NCBI RefSeq assembly: GCF_003334255.1
Contig: NZ_QOWU01000166.1
Length of the DNA stretch: 1,291 nucleotides
Source of the DNA: Escherichia coli
GTDB taxonomy: Bacteria; Pseudomonadota; Gammaproteobacteria; Enterobacterales; Enterobacteriaceae
Direction: 5' to 3' (one strand)
In this document: positions 172-1,291 of the stretch, in pieces
Layout of the letters: each line of letters opens with the position of its first letter
Position numbering within the stretch: position 1 is the stretch's first letter
Notes under the pieces: generated by a model
Seen by the model: the letters and a program-made list of their open reading frames with translations, nothing else
Database searches by the model: none
Told to the model about the DNA's origin: nothing
Translations under genes and position numbers: made by a program

Positions 172-1291
172 AACGAAAGCCTGTCCTGATTGATGTGAAC
201 GGCGTTCCGCTTCGGGAGAGTCTCAGCTACAACGGGGGTGGTGCAGGATTTGGCGGGCAAATGGCAGAGTGGTTGCCACCCTCGCAGAGTGCCGATGCGG
301 CCCTGCTGCCCGCGTTGCGTCTGGGGAATGCCCGTGCAGATGATCTGGTGCGCAATAACGGAATAGCGGCCAATGCGGTGGCCCTGCATAAGGATCACAT
401 TGTCGGGCATATGTTTCTGATTAGCTACCGTCCGAACTGGCGCTGGCTGGGGATGCGGGAGACCGCGGCAAAAAGTTTTGTCGATGAGGTGGAGGCGGCC
501 TGGTCAGAATACGCAGAAGGGATGTTTGGTGAGATCGACGTGGAAGGGAAACGCACGTTTACGGAATTTATCCGTGAAGGTGTGGGCGTTCATGCGTTTA
601 ACGGCGAAATCTTTGTGCAGCCGGTCTGGGATACGGAGAGCACGCAACTGTTTCGTACGCGTTTTAAAGCCGTGAGTCCGAAACGGGTGGACACGCCAGG
701 ACACGGTATCGGGAACCGTTTTCTGCGGGCCGGGGTGGAGGTTGATCGATATGGCCGTGCCGTTGCGTACCATATCTGTGAGGATGATTTTCCTCGCTCC
801 GGGAGTGGACGATGGGAACGGATCCCGCGTGAACTTCCCACCGGGCGTCCGGCCATGCTGCATATTTTCGAGCCGGTGGAGGACGGGCAGACCCGTGGGG
901 CCAACCAGTTTTACAGCGTCATGGAACGGCTGAAGATGCTCGATTCCCTGCAGGCAACACAGCTTCAGTCGGCCATTGTTAAAGCCATGTATGCAGCGAC
1001 GATTGAAAGTGAACTTGATACCGAAAAGGCCTTTGAATATATCGCCGGCGCGCCACAGGAGCAGAAGGATAATCCGCTTATTAATATTCTGGAGAAGTTT
1101 TCCAGCTGGTATGACACGAATAACGTGACACTGGGCGGTGTCAAAATTCCGCACCTTTTCCCTGGTGATGATCTGAAACTACAGACTGCGCAGGATTCAG
1201 ACAATGGATTTTCTGCGCTTGAACAGGCGCTGCTGCGGTATATCGCCGCCGGTCTTGGCGTTTCCTACGAACAGTTGTCCCGTGATTACTC
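168..1291 (+). CDS. B: Phage portal protein, lambda gpB family; 5' start present, 3' end runs past the window
   Basis: ATG at 168-170 opens a frame with no stop to the window end (374 complete codons). Translation begins MKRKPVLIDVNGVPLRESLSYNGGGAGFGGQMAEWLPPSQSADAALLPALRLGNARADDLVRNNG... and includes HIFEPVEDGQTRGANQFYSVMERLKMLDSLQATQLQSAIVKAMYAATIESELDT and LQTAQDSDNGFSALEQALLRYIAAGLGVSYEQLSRDY. These blocks are near-identical to lambda gpB as I recall it (GGGSGFGGQ, GNARADDLVRNNG, FEPVEDGQTRGAN.FYSVME.MKMLD.LQ.TQLQSAIVKAMYAATIESELDT, LQTAQD.DNG.S..EQ.LLRYIAAGLGVSYEQLSR). A Shine-Dalgarno-like GGAG/GAGG sits just upstream of the ATG. Confidence 0.95.
   Translation, partial: MKRKPVLIDVNGVPLRESLSYNGGGAGFGGQMAEWLPPSQSADAALLPALRLGNARADDLVRNNGIAANAVALHKDHIVGHMFLISYRPNWRWLGMRETAAKSFVDEVEAAWSEYAEGMFGEIDVEGKRTFTEFIREGVGVHAFNGEIFVQPVWDTESTQLFRTRFKAVSPKRVDTPGHGIGNRFLRAGVEVDRYGRAVAYHICEDDFPRSGSGRWERIPRELPTGRPAMLHIFEPVEDGQTRGANQFYSVMERLKMLDSLQATQLQSAIVKAMYAATIESELDTEKAFEYIAGAPQEQKDNPLINILEKFSSWYDTNNVTLGGVKIPHLFPGDDLKLQTAQDSDNGFSALEQALLRYIAAGLGVSYEQLSRDY

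Follow-up and report, generated by a model that had tools for sequence, protein, structure and literature searches.

The portal gene in the window (the whole 1,291-nt stretch of Escherichia coli DNA analysed here) contains a short internal segment that differs sharply from its counterpart in phage lambda and is enclosed by blocks that have hardly changed, which raises the question of whether this segment was acquired from another lineage or diverged in place. An earlier reading, made from the sequence without database searches, located the segment at positions 1023-1139 and put it down to mosaic recombination of the kind typical of lambdoid phages or, alternatively, to a surface region that co-varies with a partner protein. 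Comparison with lambda, with a panel of homologues and with a population of closely related portal genes makes it probable that the patch is a variable outer segment of the portal clip domain, and that its divergence results from uneven constraint and not from a spliced foreign block. A step in identity between conserved blocks should accordingly not be read as mosaicism before silent sites have been checked.

The portal gene and its setting

Judged from its sequence, the window is the end of a gpW-like head-tail adaptor gene followed by an ordinary and very common phage-21-type portal gene (Table 1). The adaptor remnant matches NCBIfam NF047331 (phage head-tail joining protein; 47.1 bits against a cut-off of 33) as well as PHROG 75 (head-tail adaptor Ad1), and the corresponding gene is labelled W in PV340551. 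It encodes a C-terminal arm that ends in GTTRRRRRPLGVRL, and its stop codon, TGA at 169-171, overlaps the start codon of the portal gene in the tetranucleotide ATGA at 168-171. The portal reading frame runs past the end of the window, the complete protein having 530 aa. It is matched by TIGR01539 (portal_lambda; 488.6 bits over residues 26-374, cut-off 172.7) and by PHROG 21 (portal protein; E=8e-133), and PF05136 (Phage_portal_2) is precomputed for cluster P0001, which is 98% identical to the window portal. The 530-aa portal of a 99.9%-identical phage aligns with lambda gpB (PDB 8k38) over residues 5-523 (E=6e-215), and by homology the window portal would form a 12-mer at one capsid vertex and conduct DNA. 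The full context, available from PV340551 and phage 21, gives the order of the head operon as terminase, gpW-like adaptor, portal and protease/scaffold; the window fits this order, with the end of the gpW-like gene lying upstream of the portal start and overlapping it.

A single silent site (nt 239) separates the window from Escherichia phage PhiR12_2_star, for a nucleotide identity of 99.9%; identity is 98.3% to PhiR12_1, _2, _4 and _5, and 96.6% to phage 21. A sensitive search was needed to match lambda and closely related phages, which are about 65% identical over nt 232-1289. Of 5,426 complete E. coli genomes, 1,863 carry portals of this type, the median among these being 2 copies. Scanning the window against Rfam (E up to 1) gave no RNA family, and a repeat search gave no inverted repeats; a weak 16-nt direct repeat (332-347 and 1160-1175, 81%) was judged to be due to chance. 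Other open reading frames over the segment (504-1154 minus, 965-1204 minus and 976-1128 plus) were dismissed because homology in the portal frame is overwhelming and polymorphism throughout the gene lies mainly at third codon positions.

Table 1. Features of the window and segment-wise divergence of its portal gene from lambda (identity in amino acids; pS and pN, silent and replacement divergence)
Feature	Portal residues	Positions	Strand	Identity to lambda	pS	pN	Basis or remark
gpW-like head-tail adaptor gene, 3' end (last 56 codons and stop)		1..171	+				translation
Phage-21-type portal gene, first 374 codons	1-374	168..1291	+				homologue of lambda B and phage 21 gene 4
Whole portal gene					0.72	0.281	
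Left flank	236-284			90%	0.69	0.087	
Left junction of recent recombination tract		804..899	+				splits PhiR12_2_star type from PhiR12_1 and PhiR12_2
First stem helix	247-276 (lambda 250-279)	906..995	+				limits from PMC10721106, +3 offset
Equivalent of chimera crossover		978..994	+				17-nt run GTGAAGGCGATGTATGC, identical in phage 21 and lambda
Clip domain	277-339 (lambda 280-342)	996..1184	+				limits from PMC10721106
Hypervariable patch	285-321	1020..1130	+	22%	0.78	0.555	core of the segment 1023-1139
Equivalent of disordered loop	300-316 (KDNPLINILEKFSSWYD)	1065..1115	+				PMC10721106, by homology
Equivalent of gpW-docking strand	317-321 TNNVT (lambda 320-324 AAPVR)	1116..1130	+				PMC10721106
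Right flank	322-374			79%	0.70	0.121	

Silent and replacement divergence along the gene

As the portal reading frame starts with the ATG at 168, nt 1023 is the first base of codon 286 and nt 1139 the last of codon 324, and the segment had been delimited and translated (EKAFEYIAGAPQEQKDNPLINILEKFSSWYDTNNVTLGG) exactly. The lambda counterpart given in the earlier reading, SAMDFILGANSQEQRERLTGWIGEIAAYYAAAPVRLGG, agrees with the sequence of lambda gpB, and the upstream block LQSAIVKAMYAATIESELDT is the same in the two portals. In the downstream block the pattern K.PHL.PGD.L.LQTAQD is shared, but the KIPHL thought to be common to both is KVPHL in lambda. Conserved blocks do enclose a sharply divergent patch (Table 1). 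The description of the protein as conserved, by contrast, fits the flanking blocks but not the whole gene, given that residues 1-235 are just 57% identical to lambda and that identity over all 374 aligned residues is 61%. Residues 285-321, with a nucleotide identity of 40%, form the lowest 37-residue stretch of the full-length comparison and directly adjoin the highest (residues 248-284, 89%).

Silent and replacement changes were counted apart, by segment, on a codon alignment (Table 1). Silent divergence from lambda was saturated and homogeneous, with no step at the patch edges (chi-square P=0.87). Non-synonymous divergence was heterogeneous across segments (chi-square P=2e-15), and the step in nucleotide identity is carried entirely by non-synonymous sites. 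Because silent sites are saturated to the same extent in all segments, the flanks must be held by purifying selection and are not recently shared. The same saturation places a very old exchange of the patch, one that preceded it, beyond the reach of silent sites. Other comparisons gave a similar picture: against Gifsy-1 the patch is 49% identical in amino acids and the whole protein 82%, and N15 shows the same pattern of patch versus rest. Against the near-identical PhiR5_1 and PhiR12_1, dN/dS is 0.23 in the patch and 0-0.03 in the flanks.

A protein database search yielded 83 near-full-length homologues, from 98% down to 60% identity, and the resulting panel of 85 sequences gave 3,570 pairwise comparisons. 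In this panel the patch is the internal maximum of entropy, with a mean of 1.96 as compared to 0.35 and 0.54 in the flanks, and every lineage is variable in it. All variants fall into a single frame in which no gap exceeds 3 residues, and share a skeleton that consists of xxxA[FM][ED][YF]I..G, a variable loop, YY and [VI][KRT]. Patch identity declines smoothly with that of the background, but faster: as identity over the rest of the protein falls through successive bands from 95-100% to 60-65%, the patch passes from 98% through 72%, 66%, 53% and 42% to 31%.

Much the same is seen at short evolutionary distance, in a population sample of 84 portal genes of the 21 type (80 IMG/VR loci and 4 phages; 70 haplotypes). 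The IMG/VR scan had been run for diverse relatives and gave just 21-type loci at 98-99% identity, which were kept out of the test of co-variation described below. Among the 84 genes, the patch has 12 polymorphic sites in amino-acid-changing codons and 5 synonymous ones, against 8 and 37 in both flanks pooled (Fisher P=1.6e-4). Seven of the 37 patch residues vary (298, 300, 305, 309, 313, 319 and 321), and position 319 has three alleles (N, S and H). The patch pN/pS, at a rough estimate 0.6, is well above that of the flanks and below 1, so that the claim goes no further than constraint that is relaxed or in part adaptive. As for positive selection, which was also considered for the patch, a ratio of this size fits relaxed constraint and is no proof of adaptive change.

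Uneven constraint along a single, continuously inherited gene accounts for these patterns. Purifying selection keeps the stem helix almost fixed, and with it the portion of the clip that lines the channel, and residues 285-321 accept amino-acid change about six times more readily, as the pN values for the patch and the left flank show, so that sharp divergence comes to stand beside near-identical blocks. That the patch has fallen to about 22% identity while the flanks remain at 80-90% is attributed to the age of the 21 and lambda lineages, as indicated by silent saturation, in combination with this unevenness.

The clip domain and its partner proteins

The location of the patch in the portal can be read from lambda, the numbering of which equals window numbering plus 3 in an HMMER alignment to PDB 8k38 that is gap-free in this region. 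In lambda gpB, residues 250-279 and 343-367 form the stem and residues 280-342 the clip; the loop 303-319, on the outer surface, is disordered in the virion, and the gpB strand 320-324 pairs by beta-sheet augmentation with the gpW C-terminal arm (PMC10721106). Mapped by homology, at 22% identity within the patch, the variable residues correspond to lambda gpB 288-324, in the outer clip. The conserved left flank consists of the stem helix, the region of lowest entropy in the 85-sequence panel, together with residues 236-246 and with residues 277-284 at the start of the clip. As the patch maps onto the outer clip, the disordered loop and the gpW strand, the surface location that the sequence-only reading had put forward as its alternative is supported, and the co-variation with partners that went with it is suggested by the comparisons below. 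An AlphaFold2 monomer model of the full portal, built on a 74-sequence alignment, had a mean pLDDT of 58.6, which is too low for surface mapping; residues 303-317 may be helical in this low-confidence model.

The clip projects out of the capsid and, according to reviews and the HK97 motor structure, docks first the large terminase, during packaging, and later the adaptor (PMC10359639, PMC7617512). For lambda and phage 21 a terminase-clip contact is taken from these other phages and would be of the same kind. The patch could then be a flexible surface element for docking that is free to vary, its partner being the C-terminal tether of the large terminase while DNA is packaged and, after that, the gpW C-terminal arm. 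Such contacts would rely on backbone pairing and on general shape and charge more than on exact side chains, and the fast evolution of the segment may partly reflect co-adaptation with partner tails that are equally variable.

It is possible, though rather doubtful, that this relationship goes further and that the patch, co-evolving with the terminase tether and the gpW C-terminal arm, decides which terminase or adaptor, of the 21 or the lambda type for instance, is accepted by a prohead. The strand paired with gpW in lambda is part of the patch, which also lies within the domain that docks the terminase and carries the significant excess of amino-acid polymorphism described above. The partner tails are variable too: 15 lineages show strong variation at the C-terminus of the terminase as well as in the tail of gpW, and in 14 of the 15 the type of gpW tail tracks the portal type at residues 317-319, tails ending in GV.. 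accompanying [TA]N[NST] and tails with GF.. accompanying A[AP][PQ]. However, the three genes are adjacent and the lineages amount to two or three independent clades, so that the association is explicable by linkage, with co-inheritance covering most of it. Beta-augmentation, moreover, is mediated by the backbone and tolerates side-chain change, and a pN/pS below 1 likewise speaks against a determinant of this kind.

Genetic work on the two phages bears on the same point. The lambda and phage 21 terminases are reported, in work by Frackman in 1984 and by Yeo and Feiss in 1995 (both cited in PMC9026076), to be prohead-specific through the C-terminus of gpA, which would favour a determinant on the portal side. 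According to the account of Yeo and Feiss (1995) given in PMC2366019, a mutation in the lambda portal suppresses a prohead-binding defect of gpA.

Natural chimeras between the two portal types weigh on the other side. Five protein variants of such 21/lambda portals (P0018, P0019, P0020, P0022 and P0023) were found in E. coli prophages, on 13 contigs from several sources, and all are of the 21 type through residue 263 and exactly of the lambda type from residue 286 to the end. A three-way comparison, in protein and DNA, of P0018/P0022 (locus L010), the 21-type gene and lambda placed the crossover in a 17-nt run (Table 1) at the boundary between stem and clip; in the window this run is broken by SNPs at 980, 983 and 986. 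In these prophages, the head operon of which is intact, the terminase tail is still that of the 21 type, unaltered, and gpW is of the 21 type as well, beside a portal whose clip and C-terminal half are entirely of the lambda type. As far as their sequences tell, they argue against strict portal-partner matching being required. They also constitute a ready-made genetic test for the site of lambda-like terminase and adaptor specificity.

A still more demanding version, in which residues 285-321 are the code by which the portal recognises its own terminase tether and gpW arm and nt 978-994 is a natural exchange point for the re-pairing of modules, is considered improbable. Were it true, the chimeras would be defective or the determinant would lie elsewhere, and in both cases one would learn where the portal determinant of lambda/21 terminase specificity, which has long been sought, is situated.

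Recombination in the gene and relation to known phages

A mosaic origin for the patch was the first proposal made for this locus. It would make the patch a cassette swapped with a third lineage between breakpoints at about nt 1020 and 1130, and this is now very unlikely. The profile that suggests it is real: nucleotide identity to lambda drops from about 75% to 33-40% and recovers to 66-76%, the change taking up about 100 nt at either edge. The gene also recombines, the chimera junction lying approximately 30 nt upstream of the patch and a four-gamete test on the 70 haplotypes of the 21 type indicating at least 52 recombination events (Rmin). However, these events are spread over the whole gene and are not clustered at the patch edges, silent divergence lacks the step that identity shows, and identity to lambda is just 57% outside the conserved blocks. 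All homologues can be aligned with the patch residue by residue, and among the 3,570 pairs from the panel of 85 none share both flanks but not the patch, and none share the patch across different backgrounds. Each chimera has a single switch, which lies upstream of the patch, and stays with the lambda type to the end of the gene, with no return to the 21 type after the patch. Mosaic recombination of the patch itself therefore does not hold up, on account of the silent sites and of the absence of any patch-only swap in these pairs.

Real exchange can nevertheless be followed in the window, at another place and on another scale. PhiR12_2_star and PhiR12_2 agree at every site as far as nt 898, over 4.9 kb or more. 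From 899 on, through a tract of at least 4.4 kb that reaches 5261 or beyond, 85 sites differ between them. Against phage 21, the window shows 44 differences before nt 987 and none from there to 1291. These comparisons indicate that the window spans a recent junction (Table 1), for which the bound at nt 804 presumes a phage-21-like donor. The divergent patch sits inside the imported tract, and the allele brought in (E298/E309/S313/N319) replaces the G/D/T/S of PhiR12_1 and PhiR12_2. Co-resident prophages thus exchange homologous DNA on a fine scale as a background state, which is distinct from mosaicism of the patch, and the premise that lambdoid portals recombine is sound in general, as chimeras, tract and Rmin all indicate, but misplaced as to location and scale, given that the patch itself is not what is exchanged. 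Recombination, which is frequent in this family, moves larger tracts with junctions in conserved sequence and does not exchange the patch as a unit.

Chance or misalignment as the cause of the low identity is negligible, for although the patch is short (37 residues), a minimum as low was reached in only 2 of 20,000 column shuffles (P about 1e-4), which shows that the divergence is not due to chance, MAFFT and HMMER give one and the same gap-free alignment, and the pattern recurs in every lineage.

Neither the gene nor the phenomenon is of a new kind, and portal proteins are expected to be conserved unevenly along their length. From the gene 4 portal of phage 21 and from PhiR12_2_star (PV340551) the window differs in nothing of substance, gene order included. 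PhiR12_1 and PhiR12_2 differ from it by four amino acids (G298E, D309E, T313S and S319N), all of which are in the patch. Lambda gpB (8k38) belongs to the same family and has the same length, inferred fold and domain order (wing, stem, clip and crown), with near-identity to the window portal in the stem helix and the inner clip. The lambda and window types differ in the tails of their partners, that of gpW having GFYV in lambda and GVRL in the window type, and the tails of the large terminase differ too. As in lambdoid mosaicism generally, there is recombination within the gene, as seen in the chimeras, the tract and Rmin. Unlike the modules of that mosaicism, the patch is not itself an exchanged unit: the junctions lie upstream, in conserved sequence, and the 3' half of the gene carries the patch along with it.

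A recent recombination tract and the portal population

The phage most similar to the window, PhiR12_2_star (PV340551, 99.9% nucleotide identity), differs from its sibling PhiR12_2 at 85 sites, all of them at or to the right of nt 899, while to the left of this position the two phages are without differences over at least 4.9 kb (L014, the PhiR12_2_star locus, compared with L013, that of PhiR12_2). This difference marks a large, recent tract of recombination, and the window contains its left junction.

Coordinates of features in the window and of the tract that begins in it
Feature	Position (nt)	Detail
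Adaptor stop codon overlapping portal start codon	168-171	ATGA
Silent difference from PhiR12_2_star	239	third position of codon G24
Left junction of the tract	804-899	left bound assumes a phage-21-like donor
PhiR12_2_star/PhiR12_2 differing stretch	899 to at least 5261	spans portal, protease/scaffold, D, E, FI
Run of four silent third-position differences	977-986	ATT GTT AAA GCC
Equivalent of the chimera crossover	978-994	17-nt identity of phage 21 with lambda, interrupted in the window
Codon 319	1122-1124	alleles N, S, H

Of 5,426 complete E. coli genomes, 1,863 carry the phage-21-type portal of the window, O157:H7 strains among them, and two to five copies are often found together in one genome; this provides ample substrate for inter-prophage recombination. 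Among the 70 haplotypes of the 21-type portal, a minimum (Rmin) of at least 52 recombination events was inferred.

The single silent difference between the window and PhiR12_2_star also sets the window apart from PhiR12_1, phage 21 and PhiR5_1, the remaining 21-type phages in the direct comparison. The stop/start overlap suggests that translation of the gpW-like adaptor gene is coupled to that of the portal gene.

Variable positions likely to face partner proteins

Codon 319 of the portal has three alleles in the 21-type population. Residue 319 sits within the counterpart of the gpW docking strand, and its alleles have been seen in every combination with those at residues 298, 309 and 313. The large terminase ends in a C-terminal tail, the reported portal-binding tether. 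This tail, encoded by the last ~30 codons of the gene, is different in almost all lineages examined, and the WQL[DN]L motif region located just before it is conserved (both across L001-L010 and L095-L101).

In the database records, 'Campylobacter phage CJLB-4' is probably lambda DNA, since its hit statistics are exactly equal to those of lambda, and the labels 'plasmid partitioning protein' or ParB on two portal homologues look like misannotations (records noted for these observations: MW057783.1, ON470627.1 and the homologue P0074).

Natural 21/lambda chimeric portals and the crossover site

Clean 21/lambda chimeras occur among natural E. coli prophage portals (L010:6001-7593; also L011 and L012). 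They follow the 21 type as far as residue 263 and the lambda type from residue 286 through to their C-terminus; the crossover falls within a 17-nt identity, GTGAAGGCGATGTATGC. In these prophages the terminase C-terminus and gpW are still of the 21 type, and the clip, protease, decoration and capsid genes are lambda-type.

In the window, the lambda identity used by the chimeras is broken by the run of silent differences, which distinguishes it from phage 21, PhiR12_1 and PhiR5_1. This exact haplotype is rare (3 of the 84 genes sampled), and is partially resembled by that of Gifsy-1 (ATT GTC AAA GCC).
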